Shown: positions 12,615-28,088, numbered from the stretch's first letter. The stretch: DNA of 64,000 nucleotides from Candidatus Muiribacterium halophilum (GCA_023228995.1 JALOAD010000010.1:11688-75687), one strand, 5' to 3'. Notes: generated from the sequence alone by a model not told the origin. A program made the numbers and translations.

Positions 12615-14393
12615 ATGAAAAGAACAGAATATTGTGGCAGGATAAACAAAGATAATATAGATGAACAAGTTGTTCTTAAAGGCTGGGTTCATAGAAGAAG
12701 AGATCTTGGAAATCTTATTTTTATACAGTTAAGAGATCGTGAAGGAATAATACAACTTGTTTTTGATCCTGAAAAATGTTCAAAAGAAGTTATGGAATGT
12801 GCAAAATTATTAAGAAGTGAATTTGTAATTGAAGTTTTGGGTAAAGTAATTGCAAGAACTATAGAAAATATTAATCCTGAAATGAGTACTGGGGAATTTG
12901 AAGTATTGGCTGAAAATCTTGAAATATTAAATTCTTCAGAATTAATTCCATTTCATATTGATGATAATGTAAATGTTTCTGAAAATTTAAGACTAAAATA
13001 TAGATATTTGGATTTAAGACGGGATTTTATGAAAGATACAATATGGTTTAGATATAAAGTTCTTGATTGTATAAGAAAATTTATGGGTGAAAAAGAGTTT
13101 ATTGAAATTGAAACTCCATTTTTAATAAAATCAACACCTGAAGGTGCTAGAGATTTTGTTGTTCCTTCAAGAATGCATACTGGTAAATTTTATGCACTTC
13201 CTCAATCTCCACAGCTTTTTAAACAGCTTCTTATGGTTGCAGCATTTGATAAGTATTTTCAAATTGCAAGATGTTTTAGAGATGAAGATGCTCGAGCTGA
13301 TAGACAAACTGATTTTACTCAGCTTGATATTGAAATGAGTTTTGTATCTCAGGATGAAATATTTACATTGATGGAAGATTTATTTAAAAAAGTTTTTAAA
13401 GAAACAATGAATATTGATATAAAAACTCCTTTTGATAGGATAGATTATGATATATCTATGGATAAATATGGTTCTGACAAGCCTGAAAGAAGATATAATA
13501 TGTTTCTTAATGATATTACCAGTCTTTTTGAAAAAAGTGAATTTAAGGTTTTTAAAGAAAATATAGAAAATGGTGGAGTTATAAAAGCTATTGTACTTAA
13601 AGGGAAAAGTACGGATATATCCAGGAAAAAAGTTGGAGAATATGAAGAATTTGTAAAAAAATTCAAAGCAAAAGGGCTTGCTTTTGTTAAGTATGAAAAC
13701 AATTCTTTTAGTGGTGGAATAGCTAAGTTTGTTGAACCTATAAAACAAAAATTTATAGAAATGCTTAATCTTGAGGATAAAGATATTGTGTTTTTTGGAA
13801 GCGATTCTAAAAAAATAGTAAACAATGTTCTTGGTAATTTAAGACTTAAACTTATTAAAGAATTTGATTTAATTGAAGATAAATCGGTTTTTGATTTTTG
13901 TTGGGTTACAAGATTTCCTCTTTTTGAAAAAGATGATAATGGAAATTGGATTGCTATGCATCATCTTTTTAGTATGCCAACACATGATACTGTTGAATTT
14001 GTAGATACAGATCCTGGTAAAGTATATGGTCAACTTTATGACCTTGTTATAAATGGCAATGAAGCTGCAAGCGGAAGTATTAGAATACATAATGCGAAAT
14101 TACAGAAAAAAATAATTGGTATTACTGGAATGAGTGAAAAAGAAATGGAACAGAAATTTGGATTTCTTTTGGAAGCATTTAAATATGGAGCTCCGCCTCA
14201 TGGTGGAATTGCTCCCGGTATAGATAGACTTATTATGATTATGAAAGGGCTTGATAATATTAAAGATGTTATAGCTTTTCCTAAAACAAATAATCAGCTT
14301 TGTCTTCTTACGGGTGCTCCAGATTTTTTATCCATAGAGCAGTTGAATGAGATCGGAATAAAAATGGAGGAAAAAAATAATGGACAAGAATGA
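12615..14393 (+). CDS. aspS: Aspartate--tRNA ligase
   Basis: Class II aaRS motifs (FQIARCFRDEDARADRQ, GGIAPGIDRLIM); N-terminal OB fold; start MKRTEYCG at 12615. Confidence 0.95.
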   Translation: MKRTEYCGRINKDNIDEQVVLKGWVHRRRDLGNLIFIQLRDREGIIQLVFDPEKCSKEVMECAKLLRSEFVIEVLGKVIARTIENINPEMSTGEFEVLAENLEILNSSELIPFHIDDNVNVSENLRLKYRYLDLRRDFMKDTIWFRYKVLDCIRKFMGEKEFIEIETPFLIKSTPEGARDFVVPSRMHTGKFYALPQSPQLFKQLLMVAAFDKYFQIARCFRDEDARADRQTDFTQLDIEMSFVSQDEIFTLMEDLFKKVFKETMNIDIKTPFDRIDYDISMDKYGSDKPERRYNMFLNDITSLFEKSEFKVFKENIENGGVIKAIVLKGKSTDISRKKVGEYEEFVKKFKAKGLAFVKYENNSFSGGIAKFVEPIKQKFIEMLNLEDKDIVFFGSDSKKIVNNVLGNLRLKLIKEFDLIEDKSVFDFCWVTRFPLFEKDDNGNWIAMHHLFSMPTHDTVEFVDTDPGKVYGQLYDLVINGNEAASGSIRIHNAKLQKKIIGITGMSEKEMEQKFGFLLEAFKYGAPPHGGIAPGIDRLIMIMKGLDNIKDVIAFPKTNNQLCLLTGAPDFLSIEQLNEIGIKMEEKNNGQE

Positions 14394-15045
14394 AATCGCT
14401 GATATTGTTAGAAGTGTTGTTGGTGAATACAGGGGAGATGAAAATGAAAAATACAATAATAATAATAAAAAAGTTTCTTTAAATTCTTTTCCTGTATCTG
14501 TTTCAAACAGACATATTCATATTTGTAAATCTGATTTAGAATGTATTTTTGGAAAAGGATATGAATTAAAAAGGATGAAAGAGCTTTCTCAGCCTGGCCA
14601 ATTTGCATGTGAAGAAAAAGTTATTATTGTTGGACCTAAAGGAAGTATTGAAAATGTTAGAATACTTGGACCTGAAAGAAAAGAAACTCAGGTAGAAATA
14701 AGTGTTACTGATACTTTCAAATTAGGAATTCCTGTTTTTGTAAGAGATTCTGGAGATCTTTCAGGAACTCCTGGTCTTACAGTATGCGGCCCTAAAGGCA
14801 GTGTTTATATTGAAAAAGGTGCAATAGTAGCTAAAAGACATATACATTTTTCTGAAAATGATGCAAAAAAATTTAATGTTAAAGATAAAGAAAAAGTTAA
14901 TGTTTTAATAGAAGGCGAAAAAGGCGGAATTTTCTCTGATGTTCTTGTTAGAGTATCAAACTCATACGCACTTGATATGCATATTGATACAGATGAAGGA
15001 AATGCTTTTGGAATAGGGAGAAATACTAAAGGTCAGATTAGTTAA
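14380..15045 (+). CDS. pduL: Phosphate acyltransferase PduL/EutD-like (PTAC) with N-terminal encapsulation-peptide-like helix
   Basis: Duplicated PduL half-domains (VSNRHIHI... and AKRHIHFSEND); N-terminal amphipathic NEIADIVRSVVGEY; overlaps aspS stop by 14 nt. Confidence 0.85.
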   Translation: MDKNEIADIVRSVVGEYRGDENEKYNNNNKKVSLNSFPVSVSNRHIHICKSDLECIFGKGYELKRMKELSQPGQFACEEKVIIVGPKGSIENVRILGPERKETQVEISVTDTFKLGIPVFVRDSGDLSGTPGLTVCGPKGSVYIEKGAIVAKRHIHFSENDAKKFNVKDKEKVNVLIEGEKGGIFSDVLVRVSNSYALDMHIDTDEGNAFGIGRNTKGQIS

Positions 15046-15163
15046 AAAATAATATAAATCAAGTTTAATTGAAAAAACTGAATTTTTGTTTTAAACTTTA
15101 AAAAGTGAAAAAATTATAGTTCTTTTTTTAATTTAGTAAAAAACATATTGTGGAGGATTTATA

Positions 15164-15445
15164 ATGAACAATGCTTTAGGTATGATTGAAACTAAAGGTT
15201 TGGTTGCAATGATTGATGCTGCTGACGCTATGGTTAAAGCAGCTAATGTAAAACTTGTAGGATATGAAAAAATTGGTGGTGGTTATGTGACAGCTCTTGT
15301 AAGAGGAGATGTTGCTGCTGTTAAAGCTGCTACAGAAGCTGGAGCTCAGGCTGCTTCAAAAATCGGTGAACTTGTATCAGTACATGTAATCCCAAGACCA
15401 CATGAAAATCTCGAAGATATTCTTCCTATTGGAAAAGCTGAATAA
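15164..15445 (+). CDS. BMC-H hexameric shell protein (PduA/EutM type)
   Basis: Canonical BMC domain [53 protein letters not shown]. Confidence 0.95.
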
Positions 15446-15449
15446 TTAG

Positions 15450-15722
15450 ATGATTTTAGGAAAAGTTATAGGGACAATTGTCTCTACTAAAAAAGACGAG
15501 AGACTTGTTGGGTTTAAACTTCTTGTTGTAAGAGAATATGATGTTAAAATGAATCCGACAAGTTCTACTGTCGTTGCAGTAGATACAGTGGGTGCAGGTT
15601 TTGATGAGTTAGTTCTAGTGGTCAGCGGTTCATCTGCTAGACAAACTGCTAAGACTGATAAAAAACCTGTTGATGCTGCAATTGTAGGAATTGTCGATTC
15701 TGTAAGTCTTAAAGAGGAGTAA
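15450..15722 (+). CDS. BMC-P pentameric vertex protein (EutN/PduN/CcmL family), copy 1
   Basis: MILGKVIGTIVSTKKDERLVGFKLLVV ... AVDTVGAG motif. Confidence 0.9.
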   Translation: MILGKVIGTIVSTKKDERLVGFKLLVVREYDVKMNPTSSTVVAVDTVGAGFDELVLVVSGSSARQTAKTDKKPVDAAIVGIVDSVSLKEE

Positions 15723-15725
15723 AGT

Positions 15726-17150
15726 ATGAGTCTTGATCATAATGAAATAAAAAATATTGTTGAAGAAATAGTAAAAAAAATTGCTGTTGATAATTATGCG
15801 ACAAAATCCGCATCAACTGGATTAAATACTGGAAAGGTTCTCGGAAAAGGTATTTTTTCAAATATGGAAGATGCTGTTAATGCTGCATATTATGCTCAAA
15901 AAGATTTAATAAAATTAAGTGTTGAAAAAAGAAAAGAGATAATTACAGAAATACGTAAGATAATGCTTGAGAATGCAGAAAAATTATCTGTAGAAGCAAT
16001 TAAAGAAACTGGTATAGGTAGAGTGAAAGATAGGCTTTTAAAAACACTTCTTTCAATAAATAAAACTCCTGGAGTAGAAGATATACAATCGAAAGTTTAT
16101 ACTGGTGATAAAGGTATGACGCTTGAAGAGTATGCTCCTTATGGACTTATTGGAGCAATTACACCGACTACTAATCCAGTAGAATCTATAATTAATAATT
16201 CAATAAGTATGATATCCGCTGGAAACTCTGTTGTATTCAATACACATCCAAGAGCTAAAAATGTTTCAAGAAAGACAATTGAATTAATAAATGAAGCGAT
16301 TATAAGTGTTGGTGGACCAAATAATACAGTAACAACAGTTGCAGAACCAACTATAGAAACTGGGACTTTTATGATGAAACATCCTAAGGTTAAACTTATT
16401 ACTGTAACTGGTGGACCTGGAGTTGTAAAAGCTGCTTTTGCATGTGGTAAAAAAGTAATTGCAGCAGGACCCGGAAATCCTCCTGTTGTTGTTGATGAAA
16501 CTGCTGATATAAAACAGGCAGCTAAAGATATTGTTGATGGAGCTTCATTTGATAATAATGTTTTATGTATTGCAGAAAAAGAAATTATTGCTGTTAAAGA
16601 AATTTATAGAGAATTAATTGATGAAATGCAAAAACATGGTGCTGTGCTTGTAAGTTCAGATGTAGTTGCAAAATTAGCTCAAGTTGCTTTATTGCCTGAT
16701 GGCAGAGTTAATTCTGCCCTTGTTGGCAAAGATGCAAAATTTATACTTTCTCAGATTGATATGCATGTTGGCGATGATATTAGACTTATAATGTGCGAGA
16801 CAGATAGAAATCATCCTTTTGCAGTAGAAGAACTTCTAATGCCTATAATTCCTGTTATAAGGGCTGATAATGTTGATGAAGCAATTGAAATGGCTTATGA
16901 GCTTGAACATAATTTTTTCCATACTGCTATGATGCATTCAAAAAATGTTGAAAATCTTCATAAAATGGCGAGAAAATCTAATGTTTCAATATTTGTAAAA
17001 AATGCACCTTCTTATGCTGGTCTTGGCTTTAATGGAGAAGGAGTAACTACATTTACTATAGCTTCTCCAACTGGTGAAGGTATTACAACTGCTAAAACTT
17101 TTACAAGAATGAGAAGATGTGTTCTGGCTGGATATTTTAGAATTGTCTGA
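15726..17150 (+). CDS. CoA-acylating aldehyde dehydrogenase (EutE/PduP-like) with N-terminal encapsulation-peptide-like helix
   Basis: ALDH fold about 470 aa with a catalytic Cys region (NVLCIAEKE); N-terminal amphipathic EIKNIVEEIVKKI. Confidence 0.88.
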   Translation: MSLDHNEIKNIVEEIVKKIAVDNYATKSASTGLNTGKVLGKGIFSNMEDAVNAAYYAQKDLIKLSVEKRKEIITEIRKIMLENAEKLSVEAIKETGIGRVKDRLLKTLLSINKTPGVEDIQSKVYTGDKGMTLEEYAPYGLIGAITPTTNPVESIINNSISMISAGNSVVFNTHPRAKNVSRKTIELINEAIISVGGPNNTVTTVAEPTIETGTFMMKHPKVKLITVTGGPGVVKAAFACGKKVIAAGPGNPPVVVDETADIKQAAKDIVDGASFDNNVLCIAEKEIIAVKEIYRELIDEMQKHGAVLVSSDVVAKLAQVALLPDGRVNSALVGKDAKFILSQIDMHVGDDIRLIMCETDRNHPFAVEELLMPIIPVIRADNVDEAIEMAYELEHNFFHTAMMHSKNVENLHKMARKSNVSIFVKNAPSYAGLGFNGEGVTTFTIASPTGEGITTAKTFTRMRRCVLAGYFRIV

Positions 17151-17161: not shown

Positions 17162-18475
17162 ATGATTGATAAAATAGAAAAAGCCGGTATTTCCGGAGCT
17201 GGTGGAGCTGGATTTCCTACTTTTTTTAAATTGGGAGCAAAAGCTGAATATTATATTATAAATGCAGCTGAATGTGAACCATTACTTGAATCTGACAGAA
17301 ATATAATGCTTCGTAATGCTGAAAAAATAATATCAGGTATTAAAAAAGTAAAAAAAATAATTGATTTTAAAAAAGCATATATTGGAATTAAACAAAAAAA
17401 TACTGATTGTGGTGAATTGTTAAAGAAATTTATTGATGTTGATTATATTGAAGTGAAAATTCTTAAAAATATTTATCCTTCCGGTGATGAACAGGTAATG
17501 ATATATGAAATACTTGGTAAAATTGTTCCTGAAGGTGGCATACCACTTAATATTGGTGTAATTGTAAATAATGTTGAAACTGTATATAGGATTGAAAAAG
17601 CAATTTCCGAAAATGAGGTTTTTAATAAAAGATATGTTACTGTAAATGGTGAAATAGAAAAACCTTGTGTTATGGAATTACCTTTAGGTATAAGTTTTTC
17701 AGATATTCTTGAATTTGCTGGCAAAAAAAAAGGTATTAATTATATCGCTATTGACGGCGGTCCTATGATGGGAAAAATTACTGATATAAAAGATGGTGTC
17801 GTCAAAAAAACTACAAGTGGTATTTTATTTCTTTCAGAAAATCATGAACTTATATTAAGAAAAACTCAGTCTATAAAAAATATATTTGCACAGGCACAGG
17901 CAAGTTGTTGTAATTGTATGACATGTACAGAATTGTGTTCAAGATATCTTATAGGTCATAGAATGGAACCGCATAAAATAATGAGAGCTTTGTGTTCTCA
18001 GAATTTTGATGAAAAGATTTTTGAATATGCTACTTTATGTAGTGAATGTAATATATGTGAGCTTTATGCTTGTCCAATAAATCTTTCTCCAAAGACTGTA
18101 AATCAGTTTCTTAAAGAAAAATTCAGAAAAGAAGGCAAAAAAATAAATATAAAAAAAGATAGTTATGAAGCTCCTGAAGAAAGAAGTGGAAGACAAATTC
18201 CTTCAGATAGAATTATAAACAGACTTGATATAAAAAAATATTATAAAAAACTTGAGTTTAAAGATGAAATTCCTGAATTTACCAAGGTTTTTTTAAAACT
18301 TTCTCAACATATAGGTGCTCCATCTAAACCTATTGTAAGTGTTGGTCAGAATGTTAAAAAAGGTGATATTATAGCAGAGAAAAACGGTAATTTATCAATG
18401 CCTCTACATTCAAGTGTTGATGGCAAGGTAGTGGAAGTTGGTTCTGATACTATAATAATAGAGGTTTCAATATGA
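17162..18475 (+). CDS. PduS/RnfC-like Fe-S flavoprotein
   Basis: RnfC-type N-terminus (GISGAGGAGFPTFFKL, INAAECEP); two Cys clusters (CCNCMTCTELC, CSECNICELYACP); C-terminal barrel-sandwich-like domain. Confidence 0.8.
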   Translation: MIDKIEKAGISGAGGAGFPTFFKLGAKAEYYIINAAECEPLLESDRNIMLRNAEKIISGIKKVKKIIDFKKAYIGIKQKNTDCGELLKKFIDVDYIEVKILKNIYPSGDEQVMIYEILGKIVPEGGIPLNIGVIVNNVETVYRIEKAISENEVFNKRYVTVNGEIEKPCVMELPLGISFSDILEFAGKKKGINYIAIDGGPMMGKITDIKDGVVKKTTSGILFLSENHELILRKTQSIKNIFAQAQASCCNCMTCTELCSRYLIGHRMEPHKIMRALCSQNFDEKIFEYATLCSECNICELYACPINLSPKTVNQFLKEKFRKEGKKINIKKDSYEAPEERSGRQIPSDRIINRLDIKKYYKKLEFKDEIPEFTKVFLKLSQHIGAPSKPIVSVGQNVKKGDIIAEKNGNLSMPLHSSVDGKVVEVGSDTIIIEVSI

Positions 18476-19017
18476 ATTGTTTAGGTATGCTTGAATATAA
18501 AAGTGTTTCAGCCGGAATTAAAAGCTGTGATACTGTTTTAAAAGCTGCTAATGTAAAATTATTATACAGTATGCCTGTATGTGCTGGAAAATATATTATA
18601 ATTGTAAGAGGAGATACTGGAGCTGTATATGCTGCAATTGATGCAGGTAAACAGGTTTCTGTATTTAATCTTGTAGATTCAATAATAATACCTAATCTTC
18701 ATAAAGATATTTTTCCTGCTTTAACAGCATCAGGTAATGTAGGAAAAATTGAAGCTCTTGGTTCGGTTGAAAGCTATTCTATTGCTGCAACTATAATAGC
18801 TGCTGATATAGCTCTTAAAACTGCTGATATTAGAATGATTGAGATTAGAATAGCAAAAGGACTTGGGGGAAAATCCTATTTTAATTTTACAGGGGAAGTT
18901 GGTGCAGTAAGAGAAAGTGAAAAAACTTGTATAAAATATCTTGAGGATAATGGATGGCTTGTATATTCATGTGTAATACCTAATCCACATCCTTCACTTG
19001 CGGAGAAATTGTATTGA
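18472..19017 (+). CDS. BMC-T tandem-domain shell protein (PduT-like)
   Basis: Two BMC domains in 181 aa; Cys at the pore-loop position (SMPVCAGKY) as in PduT. Confidence 0.85.
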   Translation: MNCLGMLEYKSVSAGIKSCDTVLKAANVKLLYSMPVCAGKYIIIVRGDTGAVYAAIDAGKQVSVFNLVDSIIIPNLHKDIFPALTASGNVGKIEALGSVESYSIAATIIAADIALKTADIRMIEIRIAKGLGGKSYFNFTGEVGAVRESEKTCIKYLEDNGWLVYSCVIPNPHPSLAEKLY

Positions 19018-19169
19018 AAAAATTGATATTATATTTTTTTCTATTTATCATTGGATTGATTTTATTATATTTTGTGGATGCAAAAGCAGAGAATATTTTT
19101 GGAATAATTGCCCCATTGTTTATTGTTTTTGTGATAATTTTTATTTTTTATGATAATAGAGTTGTCTGA
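19014..19169 (+). CDS. Putative small two-TM membrane protein (51 aa), TTG start overlapping the BMC-T stop
   Basis: TTGA start/stop overlap; GGAG 8 nt upstream; product MKKLILYFFLFIIGLILLYFVDAKAENIFGIIAPLFIVFVIIFIFYDNRVV has two hydrophobic helices. Confidence 0.35.
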   Translation: MKKLILYFFLFIIGLILLYFVDAKAENIFGIIAPLFIVFVIIFIFYDNRVV

Positions 19170-19195: not shown

Positions 19196-20272
19196 ATGGA
19201 CCGAGAAATTATGGGTGAAAAAGAATTAAAAGAAAATAGCGTTAATGAAAACATTGCTCCTCAGGAGAATACTTCAGATACAAATAATAATACACCTAAA
19301 AACAATGGCGAAAAACATGCTCATTATGTATTTAAAATCTCTTTTAATGAAATTCATAATGAATTTAATGGTGCAATGGTACTTATGGGTGATACTCAGG
19401 AAAGTAATTTTTCTTCAATAGATGTTGTTATGGATAAAAGTTTTACTCTTTCTATTGATACAGACTGGAATGCTTATCTTGAATTTATACGAAAAAAAAG
19501 AAAAGATGTTCAGGATAGCGGTTCTAATTTTCTTATATTTATTAGAAAGTTAGAAAGTTATTTTAAAAAATCTATTTCAAATGTAAAAATTGATAAGATA
19601 AACAAAATAATCGTAACTACAGAAGATGATATGCTGAGAAATGTTCTTATTAAGAATATAATTGAATCTGAGCTTTCTTCGCTTATAGGGCATGGATTTG
19701 AGGTTGAAACAATCTTAAAAGATGAAATAAAATATTATTTTAAAGAAAATACTAGTAATTTAGCATCTGAAAACTCAGAAGAATCAAATTCATCAGATCA
19801 GAATTTATCTAAAGAAATTATACTTGATGCAATTCCAATGATTGATCCAAATGAAGGTATTAAAGCAAGTGATATAAAAGTAGGTGATAGAATATTTGTA
19901 AGAATTACTGATGATTCAACTGTTGGAAAACATATAGCAAGATCTATTACAAAAACCGATAATCCCGAAGAAATTCCTGTAAGAACTCCAGTTTTTAGTG
20001 CAAAGAAAAATATTATTTCAAAATTTAGAGCATCTTCAGAGGTAATGGAGTTAATGGTTAAGTTTGATGAGGGTGTTTTTGGAAAGGTTGTTGTTCAAAC
20101 TGAAGTTAGATTAAGATCTAAACTTGATGATGAAAAGGAAATAAAAAAAGAAGATGATATACAAGAATCTGAGTATGATGAAAACGAAAAATCTGATTTT
20201 ATTCCTTATATAATTTTAATTGGTGTTGTTTTTATGATATTATATGGAATAATAACATTTCTGGGGAATTGA
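19196..20272 (+). CDS. Hypothetical acidic protein with a C-terminal transmembrane helix, inside the BMC locus
   Basis: No recognisable domain; Asn/Glu/Ser-rich N-terminus and linker; C-terminal FIPYIILIGVVFMILYGIITFLGN helix. Confidence 0.6.
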   Translation: MDREIMGEKELKENSVNENIAPQENTSDTNNNTPKNNGEKHAHYVFKISFNEIHNEFNGAMVLMGDTQESNFSSIDVVMDKSFTLSIDTDWNAYLEFIRKKRKDVQDSGSNFLIFIRKLESYFKKSISNVKIDKINKIIVTTEDDMLRNVLIKNIIESELSSLIGHGFEVETILKDEIKYYFKENTSNLASENSEESNSSDQNLSKEIILDAIPMIDPNEGIKASDIKVGDRIFVRITDDSTVGKHIARSITKTDNPEEIPVRTPVFSAKKNIISKFRASSEVMELMVKFDEGVFGKVVVQTEVRLRSKLDDEKEIKKEDDIQESEYDENEKSDFIPYIILIGVVFMILYGIITFLGN

Positions 20273-20274
20273 TT

Positions 20275-20964
20275 ATGAAAATTGCTATAGCGTCAGATCA
20301 TGGTGGATTTTTTTTAAAAGATCATTTAATTAAATTTTTAAGAGAAAAACATGAAATTATTGATCTTGGTTGTAAATCAGCTGATGATAAAGTCGATTAT
20401 CCTGATTTTGCTGTAAAGGCAGCAGAAAATGTAAGAGATAAAAAAGTTGATTATTCTATTATGATAGATGGAGCAGGTGTAGGTTCTACAATGGTAGCTA
20501 ACAAAGTTCAGAATGTTAGGGCTGCATTATGCAATGATCTTTATTGTGCTAATAATTCTAAAGAGCATAATAATGCAAATATGCTAATAATGGGTTCAAT
20601 GGTAGTTGGTTTAGGTTTAGCAGAAAAAATAGTTAATACTTTTTTAGAAGTTGAATTTGCTGGCGGAAGGCATGAAGCTAGGGTTGAAAAAATAAATTTG
20701 CTTGATAAAGTCAGGAGTATGTTTATGAATAATGATAATATTAAAGAAATGATTAAGGATATTGTTGTGAAAGTATTAAAAATGGATGTGAATTCTAATT
20801 TAAAAATAAATAATGATGATTTACCTGAATTTAGTGAAAAAGTACTTACAGAAGAATATCTTAAAAAAAATAATATAAAAAAAATCAGAATATCTTCAAA
20901 AACAATAATACTTCCTCTGGCAAATGATTATATTCTTGCTAATAAAGTCGAAGTTATAAGATGA
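20275..20964 (+). CDS. rpiB: Ribose-5-phosphate isomerase B with a C-terminal extension of about 85 aa
   Basis: MKIAIASDHGGFFLKDHL ... GGRHEARVEKI RpiB/LacAB core of about 143 aa, then an extension containing amphipathic IKEMIKDIVVKVLKM. Confidence 0.85.
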   Translation: MKIAIASDHGGFFLKDHLIKFLREKHEIIDLGCKSADDKVDYPDFAVKAAENVRDKKVDYSIMIDGAGVGSTMVANKVQNVRAALCNDLYCANNSKEHNNANMLIMGSMVVGLGLAEKIVNTFLEVEFAGGRHEARVEKINLLDKVRSMFMNNDNIKEMIKDIVVKVLKMDVNSNLKINNDDLPEFSEKVLTEEYLKKNNIKKIRISSKTIILPLANDYILANKVEVIR

Positions 20965-21242
20965 ATATTGGAAAAGTTACCGGGAATATAGTATCATCTC
21001 ATAAATATCCTGGGTTTACTGGAACAAAATTAATGCTATTGCAACCTGTTGATTCTATGTATAAAAATGCAGGTAATATAATAATTGCTACAGATAGTGT
21101 AGGAGCAGGAAATGGCGAGTATGTGATTTATATCACAAGTTCAGAAGCTTGTATTCCTTTTGTGGATGTTGTAAAATATATACCGACAGATGCAACAATT
21201 GTTGGTATAATTGATAAAATAGATATAATGCAGGAAAGTTAA
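20961..21242 (+). CDS. BMC-P vertex protein, copy 2
   Basis: MNIGKVTGNIVSSHKYPGFTGTKLMLLQPV ... ATDSVGAG. Confidence 0.88.
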   Translation: MNIGKVTGNIVSSHKYPGFTGTKLMLLQPVDSMYKNAGNIIIATDSVGAGNGEYVIYITSSEACIPFVDVVKYIPTDATIVGIIDKIDIMQES

Positions 21243-21244: not shown

Positions 21245-21529
21245 ATGTTTTTAGCAAAAGTTATTGGAAATGTTGTTTCATCGCATAAAAACATTGAGCT
21301 TAACGGCAAAAAACTTCTTGTTGTAAAGAAGATTAATCCTGTAGATTATAAGACTTTTGGTAAGGATATAATTGCAATAGATACAGTTGGAGCTGGGAAT
21401 GGTGAGATTGTATTTCTTGTTAAAGAAGGATCAGTTGCACAACAGCTTCTTGATAATAAAAATGTACCAGTACATACAGTTATTCTAGGAATAGTTGATA
21501 AAATTGATATTACGGAGGAGAAAGTATGA
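21245..21529 (+). CDS. BMC-P vertex protein, copy 3
   Basis: [27 protein letters not shown] ... AIDTVGAG. Confidence 0.88.
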
Positions 21530-21792
21530 GGAGAGCTCTGGGAATGGTTGAAACTAAAGGGCTTATTAGCATGATTGAAGCATCAGATGCTATGGTGAAA
21601 GCTGCTAATGTTGAACTTGTAGGATATGAAAAGATAGGAAGTGGTTATGTTACTACAATGGTCAGAGGAGATGTTGGAGCTGTAAAAGCTGCTGTTGAAG
21701 CTGGAGCTACTGCTGCTGCAAGAGTTGGAGAATTGGTTTCTACTCATGTTATTCCTTCTCCACATGAAGATGTTGAAAAAATCCTTGGCTGA
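21526..21792 (+). CDS. BMC-H hexameric shell protein, copy 2
   Basis: [53 protein letters not shown]. Confidence 0.95.
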
Positions 21793-21804: not shown

Positions 21805-22611
21805 ATGAATAATTATAATGAACTTGTTGAACTTATCACAAGAGAAGTTCTAAATGAAATTGGAAAAAAAGGAGAATCAGTATTTTTAAAGTCTAATATT
21901 AAAAATATTGTAAACTCTGAAATTTCTAATTTAGAAAAAAAAGATAATAATGAAATAGCATCTTATATAGATCATACGCTTTTAAAACCAGAAGCTTCAG
22001 AAGAAGAAATAATTAAAATTTGTAAAGAAGCTATGGAATATAATTTTTGGTCTGTATGTGTTAATCCAACATGGGTGAAGACTGCTTACAGTATTCTTAA
22101 AGATTCTAAAGTAAAAGTTTGTACTGTTGTAGGATTTCCTCTTGGAGCAACACCAGGTGAAGTAAAAGCATTTGAAGCTGATAGAGCTATTAAAGATGGT
22201 GCTTCTGAAGTTGATATGGTTATAAATATTGGTTATATAAAGAGTAAAAAATTTGATGAAGTAAAAGAAGATATAAAAAAAGTAAAACAAGCTTGTGGAA
22301 ATACTTTGCTTAAAGTTATACTTGAAACTTGTCTTTTAACTTCTAATGAAAAGATAAAAGCATGTGAAATCTGTAAATCAGCAGGTGCTGATTATGTGAA
22401 AACATCAACAGGTTTTAGCGTATCAGGAGCAACAGCTGAAGATATTGCACTTATGAGAAGAATTGTAGGTGAAGATATGGGTGTAAAAGCTTCTGGTGGT
22501 GTGAGAGATTCAGAAGGTGCATTAAAAATGATAAAATCAGGTGCAAGCAGAGTTGGTGCTTCAGCATCTATTGCCATAGTAAAAGGACAATATGATCATA
22601 CTGGTTATTGA
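21805..22611 (+). CDS. deoC: Deoxyribose-phosphate aldolase with N-terminal encapsulation-peptide-like helix and linker
   Basis: DERA core from [10 protein letters not shown] with Schiff-base motif [10 protein letters not shown] and KASGGV; first 50 aa form an amphipathic helix ([15 protein letters not shown]) plus an Asn/Ser-rich linker. Confidence 0.9.
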
Positions 22612-22630: not shown

Positions 22631-24790
22631 ATGAAATTAACTAAAACTCAGATATTAAGTCTTTTTGATACATTAATATCAAAAACTTTATATCTGGGTT
22701 CTTCTTTTTTTAAGAGAATTGATGAAGCTCAAAGATATAATCAGGATACAATCGAAATTTTACCCTTTCAACTTGAAAATATAAGTCAAATAAAAAACTC
22801 TGATAATTTTAAATGGAGTCTTCTTATAGGTTATCCATTAGGTATTGAAAGTACTAATGCCAAATTATATGAAATTGAGAAAAGCCTTGAATTTGCAATT
22901 GACGAAATAGTACTAATGCCAAATTTATGCTGGCTTAAAGATGGTGAATATGAAAAAATCAGAAAAGAATTAAGTATAATAAAAGAAAAAGTTAGAATTC
23001 CAGTAAAAGTTATACTCAACAATATTCTTATTACTAGAGAAGAATTTGAAAAGCTCGCACAGATTACCGAAAATATGGGAATAATACTTATTCATTCTTA
23101 TGAAAATCTAAATGTAGAAAAAGAAAAGACCAAATCAAAATTTATTAGACAAACAAATTTTAATGGACAACTTGTAAGGGTAAAACTCAGAAATAAAGAA
23201 ATAATAACAGAAAAAATATCTGGATTTGATACTATTTTTAGAGGAAGAAATATAAATTCAGGTTATTTATGGAAAAATAATATATTTCAGTATAATTCTT
23301 TTGATTTTTTAAATAAAATAATAATAACACCAGGTACTTTAGCTGGAAGCGGCATTTCAGCCTCGTCTGTTTTATCAGTTGGATTTAAATCTCCTATGAA
23401 TGAGGGAATAAAAAATCTTGAATTAGAGTGTTTGTTTAGTGATAGGCTTATGGCATGCGGTATCAAATCATTAGTTATTGATGAAATTGCTGACGAACTT
23501 TCTATAATATATATTGCAAAAGATAGAATTGAGATAATACCTACTCCTGAATATGAAAAAATGGATATTTCAATTTTGTTTGAAAATATCAGACAAGAGT
23601 ATGGAGATGTTTCTATAATAGGCATTGGACCTTGTGGAGAAGAAAAATTTATATCATCAACAATAGTTGCAACAGATCATGAAGGAAATCCAGCTATAAT
23701 GCCATCCAGAGGTTCTGGTATTGGTGCAATATTTGGTTCTAAAAAAATAAAAGCTGTAATAATAGAAAATATTAAACAAAATAGCTTTTTTTCAGAAAAA
23801 GAAAATAAACTTATAAATTCTTTTGAAGAACATCTTATAGAAAATACAATATCTGGAAGAATGCTTCCAAGACATTCTACAATGGGTTTTTTTGAAGTTA
23901 ATAATATGCTTTCTTGTCTTCCATGCGAAAATTATAGGAAATCTTCGCTTGATAACAGCATTATAAAAAATATAATGGATGATTTTAAATCTAAATTTGA
24001 TTTGACAAGATCAGAAAACAATATTGTTCGTTTTTTTAATAAACAAAAAAATAAATTTAGAAATATTAATTATATTGATTTTGCAGGTCTGGCATTGGTA
24101 AACGGAATATACGATATAGATATTTTTTTAGATTTATATGAGTGGTGTTTTGAAAAAGGTGTTGATCCGATTGAAATCGGAGGAGCTTTTGCAGTTGCAA
24201 ATGAAGCTGGTATAATAACAAGTAATGGATTAAATTCTGATTTTTTGGATAATATTTTTGAAAACGATGATTGGAGAACAAAAGTTATACTTCAAGGTGG
24301 AGCAATTGCATCTAAAACTTTAGGAATAGGAAGAGCTCCTGTAATAAATGGCGAAGTAATGCTTCCTTATGATATAAGATCTATGGTACTTTCGGGTATT
24401 GCTCAAAAAAACGGTATATCAAATGATGAAAGTAATAATTTTTCTCAATCTTATTATTATTCATTTAGAGATATATCTAATATTGAGGATAAATTGGAAG
24501 AAATTAATATTAATATGGAACATCTTAGTACAGCATTGAATGTTCTTGGGCTTTCAAGATATTGTATATTTGCTTTTCTTAAAAATACAAAAATGTTCAA
24601 TCTTGTGATTGATACTATAAATTCGCTTTATAATTCAAAATTATTAAGCGGTGATATACTTAAAATTTCAAGGCAAGTTTTAAAATCAGAACAAAAATTT
24701 AACAATAAATGCGGTTTGTATTATAATTATAATATTCCGTCCTTTTTTAGAGAAGAGCAAAATAGCAAAGGAAATATATTTAAATATTAA
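22631..24790 (+). CDS. Fusion of a degenerate DeoC-like TIM-barrel domain with an aldehyde:ferredoxin oxidoreductase (AOR/GAPOR-family)-like protein lacking cofactor ligands
   Basis: aa 60-190 align to the DeoC of this locus (LLIGYPLGIESTNAKLYEIEKSLEFAIDEIVLM vs [32 protein letters not shown]) but lack KTSTGF; aa about 200-380 match the AOR N-domain (KSPMNEG..., IGIGPCGEEKF..., RGSGIGAIFGSKKIKAVII); C-terminal domains align but the CxxCxxxC cluster ligands are absent. Confidence 0.6.
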   Translation: MKLTKTQILSLFDTLISKTLYLGSSFFKRIDEAQRYNQDTIEILPFQLENISQIKNSDNFKWSLLIGYPLGIESTNAKLYEIEKSLEFAIDEIVLMPNLCWLKDGEYEKIRKELSIIKEKVRIPVKVILNNILITREEFEKLAQITENMGIILIHSYENLNVEKEKTKSKFIRQTNFNGQLVRVKLRNKEIITEKISGFDTIFRGRNINSGYLWKNNIFQYNSFDFLNKIIITPGTLAGSGISASSVLSVGFKSPMNEGIKNLELECLFSDRLMACGIKSLVIDEIADELSIIYIAKDRIEIIPTPEYEKMDISILFENIRQEYGDVSIIGIGPCGEEKFISSTIVATDHEGNPAIMPSRGSGIGAIFGSKKIKAVIIENIKQNSFFSEKENKLINSFEEHLIENTISGRMLPRHSTMGFFEVNNMLSCLPCENYRKSSLDNSIIKNIMDDFKSKFDLTRSENNIVRFFNKQKNKFRNINYIDFAGLALVNGIYDIDIFLDLYEWCFEKGVDPIEIGGAFAVANEAGIITSNGLNSDFLDNIFENDDWRTKVILQGGAIASKTLGIGRAPVINGEVMLPYDIRSMVLSGIAQKNGISNDESNNFSQSYYYSFRDISNIEDKLEEININMEHLSTALNVLGLSRYCIFAFLKNTKMFNLVIDTINSLYNSKLLSGDILKISRQVLKSEQKFNNKCGLYYNYNIPSFFREEQNSKGNIFKY

Positions 24791-24811
24791 AATTTTTTAT
24801 AGGGAGGAGAT

Positions 24812-25978
24812 TTGAAAAGAATTTGTATTGTAGTACTTGATAGTGTTGGGGTTGGTTATCTTCCTGATGCTCATGAATATAATGATTTTGGAGCTAATAC
24901 TCTTTTACATATAGATGAAAATACAAAGATGAATTTACCTAATATGGAAAAACTTGGTCTTGGTAATATTATAGATTTTAAAAATATAAAAAAAGAAGAA
25001 AATCCAACAGCATGCTATGGTAAAATGGCTGAACTTTCAAAAGGTAAAGATACAATTACCGGACATTGGGAAATTGCTGGTATTGTACTTGAAAAACCTT
25101 TTCCAGTTTATGAAAACGGATTTCCAGAAGATATTATTAAAAAATTTGAAAAATTGACTGGAAAAAAAGTTATTGGAAATAAACCCGCAAGTGGTACAGA
25201 AATATTAAAAGAACTTGGAGAAAAACATTTAAGTACAGGTGCTCTTATAGTTTATACATCAGCTGATAGTGTTTTTCAAATTGCAGCACATGAGAGTTTG
25301 ATTCCTGTTGATGAACTTTATGATATTTGCATTAAAGCAAGAAAGCTTCTTACTGGTGAACATAGTGTTGGAAGAGTTATAGCAAGACCTTTTAATGGAA
25401 ATAACAAAGATGATTTTAAAAGAACACAAAATAGAAAAGATTTTCCTTTAAGACCTTATGAAAATATGCTTGAAAAATTAAAAGAAAACGGTCTTGATGT
25501 AATGGCTGTTGGCAAAATAGAAGATATATTTGCTGGTTACGGAATTACTTTATCATCTGGACATAATGATAATAATAAACATGGTGTAGATAATACTATT
25601 AAATTTTTAAAAGAAAAAAATAATGGTTTAATATTTACCAATCTTGTTGATTTTGACATGGTATATGGTCATAGAAATGATTTTAAAGGATATGCAAAAG
25701 CATTGGAAGAATTTGACTCTATGCTTCCAAAATTAATGAATAGTATGAAAGAAGACGATATTTTAATTATAACAGCAGATCATGGATGTGATCCTTTGTT
25801 TCCTGGAACAGATCATACAAGAGAATATGTACCACTTATTGTTTATGGCAAAAATATAAAAAAAGGTGTAAATCTAGGAATTAGAAAAGGATTTAACGAT
25901 ATATCTGCAACTGTATTAGAATATTTTAATATTGAAAAAATTACCGGTGAGTCATTTCTCGGGGAGATAAATGTCTAA
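24812..25978 (+). CDS. deoB: Phosphopentomutase
   Basis: [16 protein letters not shown]-terminus and ITADHGCDP metal-site motif; TTG start 4 nt after GGGAGG. Confidence 0.9.
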
Positions 25979-28088
25979 ATTTGATGAAGTTATCTTTAAA
26001 TTAAATAGCCGAAATATTAAAGAAAGAATTGAAGCAGTTACTGAACTTGGTGATTTAGGTGATCCTAGAGGTGTTGAATATCTTATAAATAATCTTCCTG
26101 AACTTCATTCAGAATTGAGATTAAATATAATAAGAGCATTAAAAAAAATAAAAGATCCGTCAGCAAGTGGTCCACTTATAGTAGTTTATGATGAAACTCC
26201 TTCTCAGATAATAAGGCATGAGATAATAAATGCATTGCTTGCAATATGTGATGATCATTCTATAAACAAACTTATGCAGATTGTAAATGATATTACAGAA
26301 GAAATATATCTTCGTGTAACTATACTTAAAGAAATAACAAAATTTAGATTAAAAGATTCTTCTGATATAATTAATACTTCGGTTTCTTTGTTAAAAGATA
26401 AAAATGTAGAGATTAGAAAAAATGCTCTTAATCTAATAAATGAGTATAGAGTTAGAAATATTCAAAATTATCTTTTCCCTCTTTTAAAAGAAGATGATAT
26501 AGAAGTTAGAAATAAAGCTCTTGTATATCTTTATAAAACCGAAGGCGAGGTAGTGATTAACAAAGTTATAAATATTCTTTCATCCAATCAAGTTGATAAT
26601 AATGATAAAGCAAAGATAGTTGAGGTGCTTGGAAGTATTAGAGTTGAAAAAGTTGTTAATCTTCTTAAAAAACTAATTATATGTAATATTGAAATAATCA
26701 GAAAAAATGCTATTTTTTCTCTAGTCCATACAGGCGAGAAGGGAATACATGAAGAAATTTCCAAAAGATTAAAAGATAATTCAGCAGAAGTTAGAAAAGC
26801 TGCACTTACAGCACTTACTAATATCAAAGCTTCTATGTATGTAAAAAATATTATTCCATTAATAATGGATAAAGATGAAGGTGTTAGAACAGATGCAGTT
26901 TATGCTCTTAAAAATCTTATCAATACAGTTGATCTTATTAAACTTGAACCTTTGATGAAAAATCCAAATCTAAATGTTGTAAGAGCTGTTCTTGAAGTAT
27001 TTGCAGATAAAAAATATGTACCAGCGGGTTTTTATGATTTAATTAATTCTCTTTATACTTCAGATGATGATATAATAAAAAAAGTTGTAATTCGTATTCT
27101 TGGTATTAATAAAGATAAAAAAGCTTTTGATAAACTACTTTTGCTTTTTTCAGGCGGAAGTGAAAATATAAAAATAGATATACTCTATAATCTCAAAGAG
27201 TTTAAAAGTCTTTACACTGTGCTTATTCCATCACTTTTTGAAAAATATAAAGATGAGGATTCAGAAAAAATCAGAGCTGTTATGACTGATATAATTGCAC
27301 TTGGTAATGATAGAGAAAGTGGTAAAATATTACTTTATATTGTTAAAAACGAGACAGATGGCCGAACCAAAAGTAATGCTGTTGAAGCATTAGAAAATTA
27401 TGTTGATATAATTGATGAGGTAGATTTGGTAAATACAATAATGCCTTGTCTTAAAGATAGTAACAATAGGGTTAAAGCTAATGCTGCTAAAGCATTGTGG
27501 ACACTTGGCGGGCTTAGAATGGTATCAATGCTTGAAGATATGCTTAGAAGCGAGGATAGATGGCAGAGAGCGAGTGCATGCTTTGTGCTTGGTGAGATTG
27601 CAGCTATTCAGGTTGTACCTGTGCTTAAAAGATGTCTTGATGATTCTGAGGATGTTGTAAGAGGAAATGCTGTAAAAGCACTTGCAAAATGTGGTGAATT
27701 TGATGTAGTGCATGATTATATATCAAAATATAATTCAGAAACAGATGTTGTTAGGCAGGCTATTGTTTTTTCATGTAGATTTTTTAATAATGATGAAACT
27801 AAAGAATTTCTTGTTAATATGCTTGAAGAAAAAAATGCTAATATTTCAAAAGAAGCTGCTTATTCAATAAAATTCCTAATAAAAGAAGATATATATCTTG
27901 TTGAGAAAGTATCTTATAAGATTGAAAAACTTGATAAAGAAATTATAAAAATACTTGTTGACCCTATAGGAGACTCTCAGAGTTCATTTGCACTTGAACT
28001 ACTCGAAAGATTAAGTTATTATGATGATATTGAGATATCTTCAAAAGCATCAAATATATTAAAAAAGGTAAATAAAGTTGCATTATAA
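25971..28088 (+). CDS. HEAT-repeat (PBS-lyase HEAT-like) protein, 705 aa, translationally coupled to deoB
   Basis: About 20 repeats of the ...D(p)xxRVRxxAxxALgxig form ([38 protein letters not shown]); ATG overlaps the deoB stop by 8 nt. Confidence 0.75.

Follow-up and report, generated by a model that had tools for sequence, protein, structure and literature searches.

The published catalogue of bacterial microcompartment (BMC) loci (Sutter et al., 2021) contains sugar-phosphate-utilising (SPU) loci close to the one analysed here. An orthologous locus in BM706 (PKTG01000123; 'unclassified bacterium BM706', now Candidatus Muiribacterium halophilum BM706) is SPU1 in that catalogue, which assigns its C0601_11735 and C0601_11720 to SPU1 (main). 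SPU1 loci of Elusimicrobia (Supplementary Data 2 of Sutter et al., 2021) encode a phosphotransacylase (PTAC), an EP-bearing aldehyde dehydrogenase (AldDH), deoxyribose-5-phosphate aldolase (DERA) and RpiB adjoining two BMC-P, together with a BMC-P triplet, two BMC-H and PduT-type BMC-Ts with PduS, and they lack BMC-Tdp. Published SPU7 has one BMC-H and a satellite locus that holds DERA and two BMC-P. Among SPU components, only the DERA-RPI pair of SPU6 from Chloroflexi has been characterised by experiment (Dwyer, Sutter and Kerfeld, 2024); in this pair, an N-extended DERA with conserved catalytic residues is paired with an RPI that has lost its catalytic cysteine and was proposed to serve packaging over catalysis; loss of this RpiB cysteine was tied to near-zero R5P isomerase activity (Dwyer et al.). 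PMC11585597 sets out both the pathway model and the DERA-RPI complex. Pseudoenzyme core organisers are also represented by CcmM of beta-carboxysomes and by the defunct AldDH copies of GRM1 loci.

The window analysed here, a stretch of 64,000 nt from a Muiribacteriota metagenome bin, contains an SPU-type metabolosome locus (Table 1). On the plus strand, profile searches identified PduL, an acylating AldDH, a PduS/RnfC-like flavoprotein, two BMC-H, three BMC-P, one BMC-T, an RpiB-like protein, DERA and the phosphopentomutase DeoB. Every enzyme and shell protein matched above curated cut-offs, so that all component calls of an earlier sequence-only reading hold, although its gene list had omitted or set apart a 719-aa DERA-like/AOR-like fusion and a 358-aa protein. 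The genes form the co-directional, mostly overlapping string that had been described, with overlaps or gaps of at most 21 nt at all junctions except between pduL and the first BMC-H gene (118 nt) and after the BMC-T gene (178 nt). The SPU gene content that had been claimed is indeed present, namely an N-extended DERA, an RpiB-type protein, an AldDH with an EP-like N terminus, a BMC-P triplet (two of them adjacent) and a PduS/PduT pair, to which the locus adds PTAC and DeoB. The shell set is complete, and its single PduT-like BMC-T carries a pore cysteine. The full gene order is kept in at least four Muiribacteriota lineages, and the functional locus most likely extends from pduL (14380) to deoB (25978). 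We consider it probable (roughly 75%) that the region encodes an SPU-type catabolic microcompartment with the deoxyribose-5-P to acetyl-P pathway of the published SPU model; here encapsulation, substrate and flux direction are deduced from sequence. Most likely, the organelle degrades deoxyribose phosphate from DNA while keeping toxic acetaldehyde confined.

Table 1. Features of the SPU-type locus and its flanks (window coordinates)
Feature	Position	Strand	Evidence and remarks
aspS, aspartyl-tRNA synthetase	12567..14393	+	tRNA-synt_2 1.5e-113, GAD, OB domain; upstream context, outside the organelle
PduL-type phosphotransacylase (PTAC)	14380..15045	+	PF06130 2.7e-80; NF011652 273 bits (cut-off 209)
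BMC-H 1 (shell hexamer)	15164..15445	+	PF00936 2.6e-31; interface motifs KAAN / PRPH
BMC-P 1 (shell pentamer), 'third' member of the SPU triplet	15450..15722	+	PF03319 3.6e-32
CoA-acylating aldehyde dehydrogenase (EutE/PduP type)	15726..17150	+	NF011927 657 bits (cut-off 403)
PduS/MNdh-type NADH-oxidising Fe-S flavoprotein (PduS/RnfC-like)	17162..18475	+	Complex1_51K 1.2e-42, SLBB, Fer4_17, RnfC_N; TIGR01945 264 bits (cut-off 246)
PduT-like tandem BMC-T (BMC-Ts)	18472..19017	+	two BMC domains, 1.8e-41
51-aa protein, uncalled before	19014..19169	+	translation of the 178-nt 'gap' after BMC-T; TTG start
358-aa tail-anchored protein	19196..20272	+	C-terminal hydrophobic/TM segment; no cysteine; distantly DUF4899-like
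RpiB-family protein	20269..20964	+	PF02502 2e-50
BMC-P 2, one of the adjacent pair	20961..21242	+	PF03319 3e-25
BMC-P 3, one of the adjacent pair	21245..21529	+	PF03319 1.3e-25
BMC-H 2 (shell hexamer)	21526..21792	+	PF00936 3e-31; motifs KAAN / PSPH
Deoxyribose-5-phosphate aldolase (DERA), SPU signature enzyme	21805..22611	+	TIGR00126 equivalog, 301 bits (cut-off 117)
719-aa DERA-like/AOR-fold fusion	22631..24790	+	AFOR_N 1.3e-32, AFOR_C 9.6e-10; TIGR00126 1.8e-12 on residues 29-152
Phosphopentomutase DeoB	24812..25978	+	NF003766 554 bits (cut-off 256); TIGR01696 507 bits
705-aa HEAT-repeat protein	25971..28088	+	HEAT_2 6e-57; system membership unproven
LysM/M23	28078-28851		follows HEAT
DUF2582 winged-helix ORF	28865-29152		between LysM/M23 and SurE
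SurE	29154-29915		follows the DUF2582 ORF

BM706 has the same gene order from BMC-H 1 to the HEAT gene, and the genes for the small TM protein, the 358-aa protein, the DERA/AOR-like fusion and DeoB are all in place. Its contig breaks off in the stretch that precedes BMC-H 1, so PduL and aspS are unrecorded there. Identities to the window are 76% for AldDH, 87-94% for BMC-H, 81% for BMC-P 1, whose orthologue matches the 90-aa C0601_11735 (P_fadedGreen1 of the SPU1 main locus in the catalogue typing), and 71% for BMC-T, whose orthologue matches the 181-aa C0601_11720 (Ts_brick). BM706 is nevertheless a different species from that of the window, with the 719-aa and 358-aa proteins only 42% and 41% identical, respectively. 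The window shares with the Elusimicrobia SPU1 loci all the components listed above for them, but comes from a different phylum and, unlike SPU1 as published, has only one BMC-Ts (there is no second BMC-T in the locus) and no TPI (pfam00121) in either the locus or the 64-kb window. Its BMC-H motifs are KAAN/PRPH and KAAN/PSPH as against KAAK/PRPH and KAA(N/D)/PQPH; DeoB, the pseudo-DERA/AOR fusion and two membrane proteins are additional to the SPU1 set.

A Wallbacteria SPU locus (L017; GCA_028687545.1) has the same backbone, PTAC-H-P-AldDH-PduS-T-(small TM)-RpiB-P-P-H-DERA. A conserved small TM gene again follows BMC-T, and the RpiB-like protein shares with that of the window the replacement of Cys by Asp, the C-terminal EP-like helix and the PduM/eut_hyp-like module. 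Furthermore, in the catalogue trees the BMC-P and BMC-Ts of BM706 are listed immediately beside Wallbacteria SPU7 proteins. However, the L017 AldDH is only 52% identical to that of the window. In L017, PduS and BMC-T are separated by a GAF/HD/CBM48 protein, the DERA extension contains a Cys-rich insert, and neither the 358-aa protein nor the DERA/AOR fusion, DeoB or HEAT is present. SPU6 resembles the window in its extended DERA and in an RPI without the catalytic cysteine but has BMC-Tdp, no PTAC, no PduS and a C-terminal EP on AldDH; its RPI carries the EP at the N terminus, whereas the EP-like helix of the window protein lies in a C-terminal extension. The locus type is therefore not new, being well known and with a sister locus already catalogued, and only some lineage-specific extra genes are new. 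The sequence-only reading, whose observation is confirmed, is thus supported in part as an interpretation: its suggestion of novelty is weakened by the SPU1 orthologue in BM706 and the backbone order shared with Wallbacteria, and survives for the unusual members, which are not mentioned in the text of the 2021 BMC catalogue or of the published SPU description.

PduL, with both RHIH motifs, has an N-terminal extension of ~37 aa bearing an EP-like amphipathic helix (KNEIADIVRSVVGEY) that is also present in the L009 orthologue, and AldDH, with the Cys motif NNVLCIAEKE, has an N-terminal EP-like helix (HNEIKNIVEEIVKKI) kept in L008 and L009. DERA has intact catalytic residues, the Asp (EVDMV), the Schiff-base Lys (VKTSTGF) and the second Lys (GVKASGG), and an N-terminal extension of ~50 aa that opens with an amphipathic helix and is kept in L004, L008, L009 and L017. 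These helices, like that in the C-terminal extension of the RpiB-like protein, are kept across orthologues 41-76% identical, and are called EP-like from helix pattern and conservation rather than from published EP HMMs. In PduS, the RnfC_N domain is permuted to the C terminus (residues 370-429), which is typical of BMC PduS and has been described for the BMC NADH dehydrogenase MNdh (PMC11626177). The BMC-T matches the PduT structures 3nwg, 3pac and 3n79 (1e-44 to 1e-36) with the cysteine aligned, and this pore cysteine, in PVCAGKY, is the predicted Fe-S site of an electron conduit. BMC-H 1 is 83-94% identical in Muiribacteriota and Wallbacteria loci.

Upstream, the 3' end of aspS runs 14 nt into pduL, exactly as had been noted. 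The aspS gene, which more likely begins at 12615 (592 aa in the output of gene callers) than at 12567, also precedes the locus in L009, L015 and L019. The overlap could allow read-through from aspS into the BMC genes. Alternatively, and at slightly less than even odds, a promoter of their own, situated within the aspS 3' end or in the 118 nt between pduL and BMC-H 1, drives the BMC genes, which would then respond to a separate induction and not to constitutive aspS read-through; the question concerns regulation only. In favour of such a promoter, the overlap is absent from sister loci with a readable junction (a gap of 31 nt in L015, no overlap in L009), the related loci L014 and L017 have different upstream genes, a HisKA/response-regulator pair in L014, and sigma-70-like matches lie at 14381-14408 and 15069-15097. 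However, promoter-like matches occur in this AT-rich DNA at background frequency (134 found, 119 expected), the sole terminator-like hairpin reported is a weak one of 5 bp inside the aspS coding sequence (14028-14043) with none at the aspS/pduL junction, and no riboswitch or other Rfam element was found. As had been stated, the window contains no dedicated regulator, though this is only an absence.

The RpiB-like protein had been read as sugar-phosphate cargo; its family assignment stands, but a catalytic role is doubtful. In alignments to RpiB structures, Asp stands at the position of Cys66 and Ala at that of Thr68, turning ICGTG into IDGAG. The conserved C-terminal EP-like helix is accompanied by a module of ~45 aa that matches the C terminus of TIGR02536 in all five orthologues (1e-5 to 5e-4) and, weakly, that of PduM. 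Since it carries the helix and this PduM/eut_hyp-like module and has lost the catalytic Cys, the protein is probably a structural, non-catalytic core or assembly component.

In the 719-aa fusion, a truncated DERA-like half-barrel (residues ~1-160) precedes an AOR-fold domain, and its AF2 model matches 1aor (E 1.7e-23) and DERA (2e-4). Full-length homologues that carry a label are all from Muiribacteriota in a word-based search of a 5.8-billion-protein database, two more occur in L008 and L009, and the combination of DERA and AOR folds was not found in the BMC literature searched. We regard this lineage-specific protein as a probable pseudoenzyme or scaffold. That the RpiB-like Asp variant and the fusion are instead active on another sugar phosphate or aldehyde, in which case deoxyribose would not be the main, or not the sole, substrate of an SPU-like shell, appears unlikely. 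In its favour, Dwyer et al. allow for an activity of SPU RPIs on rare sugar phosphates and cite the M. tuberculosis RpiB as functional with Glu for Cys; the fusion is also 41-85% identical among orthologues with many invariant non-Cys residues, which indicates purifying selection. However, its AOR-like domain has lost the four Fe-S cysteines of 1AOR and both pterin-binding Asp, its DxxGL(C/D) motifs are degenerate, and no Cys is invariant among six orthologues. In the truncated DERA-like part, Asp is replaced by Val/Ile and the Schiff-base Lys by His/Asn/Ser, and the third-Lys region is deleted. Furthermore, the intact DERA scores as a deoC equivalog and DeoB adjoins. Two or three cargo-like proteins thus appear to be dead enzymes, and our guesses at their roles follow CcmM, the GRM1 copies and the inactive SPU6 RPI: like CcmM and the GRM1 copies, they have cargo-related enzyme folds with lost catalytic residues and are encoded in the BMC locus, but they are unrelated to these in sequence, and binding or scaffolding by the window proteins is putative.

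In the favoured deoxyribose-catabolic organelle, DeoB would convert deoxyribose-1-P, from a nucleoside phosphorylase encoded elsewhere, to deoxyribose-5-P. DeoB, which the loci of Wallbacteria and Ozemobacteraceae lack, has no terminal extension, its N terminus starting straight at the catalytic fold in all orthologues, and it probably acts in the cytosol and supplies the organelle. Deoxyribose-5-P would then enter the shell and be cleaved by DERA to glyceraldehyde-3-P, which leaves, and acetaldehyde, which stays confined; AldDH would yield acetyl-CoA and NADH, and PduL would recycle CoA and release acetyl-phosphate for ATP synthesis outside the shell. PduS would reoxidise NADH, with electrons exiting via the Fe-S centre of the BMC-T pore, while the RpiB-like protein and the dead DERA/AOR fusion would most likely be core-organising partners of DERA. 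The chemistry that had been proposed from deoxyribose-1-P through acetaldehyde and acetyl-CoA to acetyl-P is the current SPU model of the field (PMC11585597). Nucleoside phosphorylase, acetate kinase, transporter and regulator genes are, like TPI, absent from the 64-kb window, so the pathway is locally incomplete. DERA and DeoB are reversible enzymes, and the same organelle could run backwards as an aldehyde sink, essentially the model reportedly put forward by Nobu and colleagues in 2016 for Atribacteria BMCs, with acetaldehyde (from reductive AldDH or from outside) and glyceraldehyde-3-P joined by DERA to deoxyribose-5-P and passed through DeoB and the RpiB-like protein into pentose metabolism; the locus has no alcohol dehydrogenase and no phosphorylase nearby to supply deoxyribose-1-P, but such reverse flux is improbable, as PduL and the NAD+-regenerating PduS/PduT module suit oxidation of acetaldehyde to acetyl-P, the onward pentose step is unsupported for a RpiB-like protein without its catalytic Cys, and catabolism is favoured in the SPU literature.

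A small two-TM protein and the tail-anchored 358-aa protein are encoded beside PduS/PduT; speculatively, they may tether the proposed organelle, or the outlet for its electrons, to the membrane. The start codon of the 51-aa protein overlaps the BMC-T stop by 4 nt, and a Kyte-Doolittle scan gives two hydrophobic TM-like segments; homologues occupy the same position in L004, L008, L009, L019 and L017 and share the motif VxxxAxN(I/L)F, then xxxP(L/F). The window copy of the 358-aa protein has no Pfam or NCBIfam match, and its AF2 model, itself poor, gave no fold match, whereas its orthologue P0011 matches PF16240 at 2.9e-7. The word-based search of the 5.8-billion-protein database returned six relatives (42-100% identical, the labelled ones Muiribacteriota), and an exhaustive HMMER search returned 92, mostly remote.

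Downstream, the HEAT, LysM/M23 and surE genes follow as had been reported, with the DUF2582 ORF between the last two. The HEAT gene begins within the last 8 nt of deoB, and HEAT comes after DeoB in L004, L008 and L009. However, the locus end at 28088, drawn to include HEAT, is functionally unjustified: the protein has no EP-like end, it is absent from the non-Muiribacteriota relatives L017 and L018, and Muiribacteriota synteny reaches far past the BMC genes on both sides. The adjacency of HEAT and LysM/M23 reflects this phylum-wide synteny rather than a demonstrated function; they, aspS and surE are conserved beside the locus but have no demonstrated part in it. A second HEAT protein is encoded elsewhere in the window.

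The plus strand between 12.5 and 31 kb carries a single co-directional string of tightly packed genes, and the enzymes and shell proteins that the sequence-only reading had assigned within it were all borne out by Pfam and NCBIfam profile searches. The component matches lie far above chance and the locus is real; judged by its genes, it represents a complete SPU-type microcompartment locus of a known and catalogued kind. Indeed, it encodes a DERA with an N-terminal extension, an AldDH with an EP-like helix (EP, encapsulation peptide) and a pfam02502 RpiB-type protein, the features by which SPU loci are recognised. Catalytic motifs are intact in DERA, AldDH, PduL, PduS/PduT and DeoB. The DERA extension, ~50 aa long, starts with a conserved amphipathic helix, and the catalytic D, K and K of the enzyme are all kept. 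The N-terminal helix of AldDH, HNEIKNIVEEIVKKI, is kept in the orthologues, and its assignment as an EP comes from the helix and its conservation rather than from published EP HMMs. PduL, AldDH and DERA all carry conserved EP-like amphipathic helices at the N-terminus, and comparison of the termini revealed none on DeoB or the HEAT-repeat protein. PduS contains FMN/NADH and two [4Fe-4S] domains with RnfC_N at its C-terminus, which is the usual arrangement for BMC MNdh (PMC11626177). Furthermore, the BMC-T retains the pore Cys and its gene overlaps pduS by 4 nt, as expected of a PduS/MNdh-PduT electron conduit. Two of the three BMC-P genes are adjacent and one stands apart, the orthologue of the latter being catalogued as fadedGreen1; the scanned ORFs of the window contain no further BMC-domain proteins.

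Components of the microcompartment locus and the accessory genes among them, with supporting profile matches
Feature	Position	Strand	Profile evidence
PduL/PTAC	14380-15045	+	PF06130 2.7e-80
BMC-H (first)	15164-15445	+	PF00936 2.6e-31
BMC-P (separate one)	15450-15722	+	PF03319 3.6e-32
EutE/PduP-type acylating AldDH	15726-17150	+	NF011927 657 bits, cut-off 403
PduS/RnfC-like Fe-S flavoprotein	17162-18475	+	Complex1_51K 1.2e-42; TIGR01945 264 bits
Tandem BMC-T, PduT type	18472-19017	+	two BMC domains, 1.8e-41
51-aa protein	19014-19169	+	
358-aa protein	19196-20272	+	
RpiB-family protein	20269-20964	+	PF02502 2e-50
Adjacent BMC-P pair	20961-21242, 21245-21529	+	PF03319 3e-25 and 1.3e-25
BMC-H (second)	21526-21792	+	PF00936 3e-31
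DERA	21805-22611	+	TIGR00126 301 bits, cut-off 117
719-aa DERA-like/AOR-like fusion	22631-24790	+	
DeoB	24812-25978	+	NF003766 554 bits, cut-off 256

Few bacterial organelles are as widespread as SPU microcompartments, which have scarcely been studied by experiment; the window provides a complete example, on one contig, for a candidate phylum. Following the published SPU model (PMC11585597), DeoB would make dR5P in the cytosol, DERA inside the shell would release G3P and acetaldehyde, and AldDH together with PduL would take the acetaldehyde to acetyl-P with recycling of CoA, while PduS/PduT would regenerate NAD+ via electron export, after the MNdh model (PMC11626177). The presence of the feeder enzyme DeoB in the locus strengthens the proposed link from nucleoside salvage through deoxyribose-5-P to acetaldehyde. 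No nucleoside phosphorylase, acetate kinase or TPI is encoded in the window, where a search for a DeoD-type nucleoside phosphorylase found nothing. SurE, a member of a nucleotidase family encoded seven genes 3' of DERA, would fit nucleotide salvage.

The name SPU dates from 2014 (Axen 2014); by 2021 the loci numbered >280 from 26 phyla in seven subtypes (Sutter 2021), and 2024 brought their curation and a partial characterisation (Dwyer 2024, PMC11585597). In the 2021 tree files, the shell proteins of Ca. Muiribacterium halophilum BM706, which has the orthologous locus, are labelled "unclassified-bacterium BM706, bmcType=SPU1 (main)" (Sutter 2021), and the locus of this lineage is therefore already catalogued; by sequence comparison, the window is a further species with a locus of that kind. 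In the same files, C0601_11735 (90-aa BMC-P, P_fadedGreen1) and C0601_11720 (181-aa BMC-Ts, Ts_brick) stand immediately beside Wallbacteria SPU7 proteins (Sutter 2021). The window shares with SPU1 the presence of PTAC and of PduS/PduT and the absence of BMC-Tdp. In contrast to SPU1, it lacks TPI, with no TIM match in the scanned ORFs of at least 110 aa and no tblastn hit in the window to E. coli TpiA, and it has only one BMC-T, with the pore Cys, whereas SPU1 has two, one with this Cys and one without. It also differs from SPU1 as described in its BMC-H interface motifs and phylum. In SPU7, on the other hand, a satellite locus holds DERA and the grey/orange BMC-P pair, and there is one BMC-H, whereas the locus in the window is contiguous and has two BMC-H. 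The texts of the 2021 and 2024 papers mention no AOR-like protein, phosphopentomutase or HEAT protein as part of SPU loci. Subtyping through AldDH neighbours had no resolving power, since outside Muiribacteriota the identities form a flat plateau of 52-60% across many phyla and SPU subtypes.

Scanning GTDB representative genomes with AldDH returned two loci, those of BM706 (76% identical) and of a Muiribacteriota bin (74%). These and the loci of a second Muiribacteriota species from the same metagenome (L004, L015, L019) have one gene order wherever the contigs reach: aspS-PduL-H-P-AldDH-PduS-T-small ORF-358 aa-RpiB-P-P-H-DERA-719 aa-DeoB-HEAT(-LysM/M23). A Wallbacteria SPU locus (L017, GCA_028687545.1) resembles it, with PTAC-H-P-AldDH-PduS-(GAF/HD protein)-T-small ORF-RpiB-P-P-H-DERA in one contiguous run, and an Ozemobacteraceae locus (L018) reads TIM-like-PTAC-H-P-AldDH-PduS-T-RpiB; the 358-aa and 719-aa proteins, DeoB and HEAT are absent from both. 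The lineage-specific accessory genes comprise those for the apparently dead DERA/AOR fusion, for DeoB, for the DUF4899-like protein with its tail anchor, and for the small transmembrane protein, which is shared with Wallbacteria. In L017, a GAF/HD/CBM48 (AMPK-beta-like) protein (12780-14234) is inserted between PduS and BMC-T, and the N-terminal extension of DERA (16540-17589) carries an insert rich in Cys, CSFCDPGNCTGCGYC; both may serve the SPU organelle as regulatory or metal-binding extras.

Catalytic residues are lost in three domains of the locus, namely the RpiB-like protein and the DERA-like and AOR-like parts of the 719-aa protein. The RpiB-like gene sits directly upstream of the BMC-P pair. 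Its product aligns with RpiB structures at ~1e-39, with the ICGTG motif of 3he8 and 1nn4 changed to IDGAG, and both the catalytic Cys66 and Thr68 (E. coli numbering) are gone, while the remaining active-site motifs DH, HN and GGRH are retained. The same Cys-to-Asp change occurs in L004, L017 and L018. For the SPU6 RPI, in which this Cys is also missing, R5P isomerase activity is slight or absent; the protein binds DERA in a 1:1 complex and may have a role in packaging (Dwyer et al. 2024, PMC11585597). The C-terminal extension of the RpiB-like protein consists of a conserved amphipathic helix, IKEMIKDIVVKVLK, followed by a ~45-aa module that matches the C-terminus of TIGR02536 (eut_hyp) at 1e-5 to 5e-4 in all five orthologues and, weakly, the C-terminus of PduM. 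Residues ~155-231 thus comprise an EP-like helix and a ~45-aa module (KVLTEEYLKK...TIILPLANDYI) common to eut_hyp, an SPU4-associated flavoprotein-like protein, and PduM C-termini. This module may be a reusable one for BMC association.

Profiles and alignment identify the 719-aa protein as a DERA-like N-terminal domain fused to an AOR fold, and its AF2 model (pLDDT 66.6) matches 1aor with E 1.7e-23 and DERA structures with 2e-4. The DERA-like part has about five beta/alpha units in the model; its Asp is replaced by Val/Ile and its Schiff-base Lys by His/Asn/Ser, and the barrel stops before the second Lys. In P. furiosus AOR, the [4Fe-4S] ligands are C288, C291, C295 and C494, and there are two DxxGL(C/D) pterin-binding motifs. 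Aligned to 1aor, the AOR-like part is missing all four Fe-S Cys and both pterin-binding Asp, the motifs reading FEKGVD and NVLGLS, and no Cys is invariant across six orthologues. We considered an active AOR part as a second sink for acetaldehyde and ruled this out because the cofactor ligands are missing. The protein is nevertheless conserved, at 41-85% identity. In a word-based search of a 5.8-billion-protein database, its full-length homologues are Muiribacteriota-labelled or unnamed, and the next matches are ordinary archaeal AORs in non-BMC contexts. Identical copies are carried by two contigs, one from ENA (109 kb) and one from JGI (35 kb); a metagenome scan with the fusion alignment confirmed no locus, and a literature search for an AOR-BMC link gave nothing relevant. 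By analogy with CcmM and the SPU6 RPI, we infer that the RpiB-like protein and the DERA/AOR fusion organise the core.

The 178-nt stretch after BMC-T, an apparent gap, holds the gene for the 51-aa protein. Its TTG start overlaps the BMC-T stop, so that the two genes appear translationally coupled, and its product has two hydrophobic, TM-like segments. The protein keeps its sequence and its place in all Muiribacteriota loci and in L017, where the homologue, at about 14750-14936, is uncalled. It has no Cys or His, and therefore no obvious redox partner role. Scanning with a three-sequence alignment of it retrieved only the known sister species (L019) and one spurious match (L020). The neighbouring 358-aa protein has a C-terminal TM helix, which would be a tail anchor, and no Cys. 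It has no direct Pfam match, and an orthologue matches DUF4899 at 2.9e-7. An exhaustive profile search found 92 relatives, mostly remote and similar in length; the AF2 model is of low confidence (pLDDT 59.6), and no PDB structure came up below E = 0.1 in a Foldseek search. One remote relative (L013, 8001-9080) is encoded in an operon for flagellar export, between flhF/flhG and fliA, which suggests that the family might act as a membrane landmark or in positioning; the contigs of the other remote contexts (L010-L012) are too short for the neighbourhood to be read.

The accessory genes are candidates for two questions, how a metabolosome core is organised and what accepts the electrons leaving the shell: on the one side two or three apparent pseudoenzymes (the Cys-to-Asp RpiB-like protein and the DERA/AOR fusion), on the other the two membrane proteins by the PduS/PduT outlet. 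The latter might, speculatively, tether the shell or its electron outlet. Together, these proteins would form a lineage-specific layer in which the dead fusion and the Cys-less RpiB-like protein order or nucleate the DERA/AldDH core like CcmM, and the 51-aa and 358-aa proteins dock the Fe-S pore to the cytoplasmic membrane, coupling NADH reoxidation to a membrane acceptor or positioning the organelle. We regard this combined arrangement as improbable. The locus would gain weight only if the scaffold and tether reading were true.

Downstream of DeoB follow genes for a HEAT-repeat protein, a LysM/M23 protein, a DUF2582 winged-helix ORF and SurE. The locus had been drawn from 14380 to 28088; the part from pduL to deoB (14380-25978) most probably stands, and the HEAT gene (to 28088) would fall outside, its adjacency being explained by phylum-wide synteny and the gene being absent from L017 and L018. 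LysM/M23 and SurE, also missing from the Wallbacteria and Ozemobacteraceae loci, were rejected as parts of the system on the same grounds. Indeed, the synteny in the phylum runs on through unrelated upstream genes (DHODB-like, GltD-like, glyA, lplA and a minus-strand TPR gene), and the conserved positions of aspS, HEAT and LysM/M23 next to the locus thus say little for a functional link. The functional locus would thus be 14380-25978.

Coordinates and sequence confirm the 14-nt overlap between aspS and pduL, which is not conserved in those sister loci whose junction could be read. The absence of a dedicated regulator from the window also held, and all Rfam families scored below the gathering score over its whole length; neither a riboswitch nor a convincing promoter turned up. 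A promoter scan of 12000-31500 gave 134 sites against 119 expected, which is uninformative in DNA of 28% GC. Terminator-like matches within the string are weak (stems of 5-7 bp, 3 G-C pairs), and the only intergenic plus-strand terminator-like hairpin lies at 31130-31145, after the pilin-like genes. Transcriptional read-through from aspS into the BMC genes is possible.

The window as a whole has a GC content of about 28% and a strongly positive GC skew, and the genes around the locus have housekeeping or surface-related functions (ffh, rimM, trmD, glyA, lplA, lon, rpsB, tsf, frr, uppS, pilin-like genes and TPR giants). Between 32000 and 48000 the G+C content is 21-24%, against 26-33% in the remainder. 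This block holds giant TPR ORFs of 1619 aa (32647-37506) and 1335 aa (43383-47390), a sigma-70 family factor (37513-38268), a second HEAT-repeat protein (38265-40127) and a VWA protein. The stretch 28865-31145, after LysM/M23, contains the DUF2582 ORF, SurE and three short N-methyl (type IV pilin-like) genes. Upstream, at 6708-8905, the gene for a DHODB-type Fe-S/NAD-binding subunit is paired with one for a GltD-like (Fer4_20 + Pyr_redox_2) oxidoreductase, and the pair is syntenic in the sister species; it is an NAD(P)H:ferredoxin-type module that lies near the BMC locus. Finally, the longest aspS ORF starts at 12567, whereas gene callers give 592 aa, and an ATG at 12615 (MKRTEYCG) follows a GGGG-rich ribosome-binding site; the first 16 codons of the longest ORF are probably not translated.
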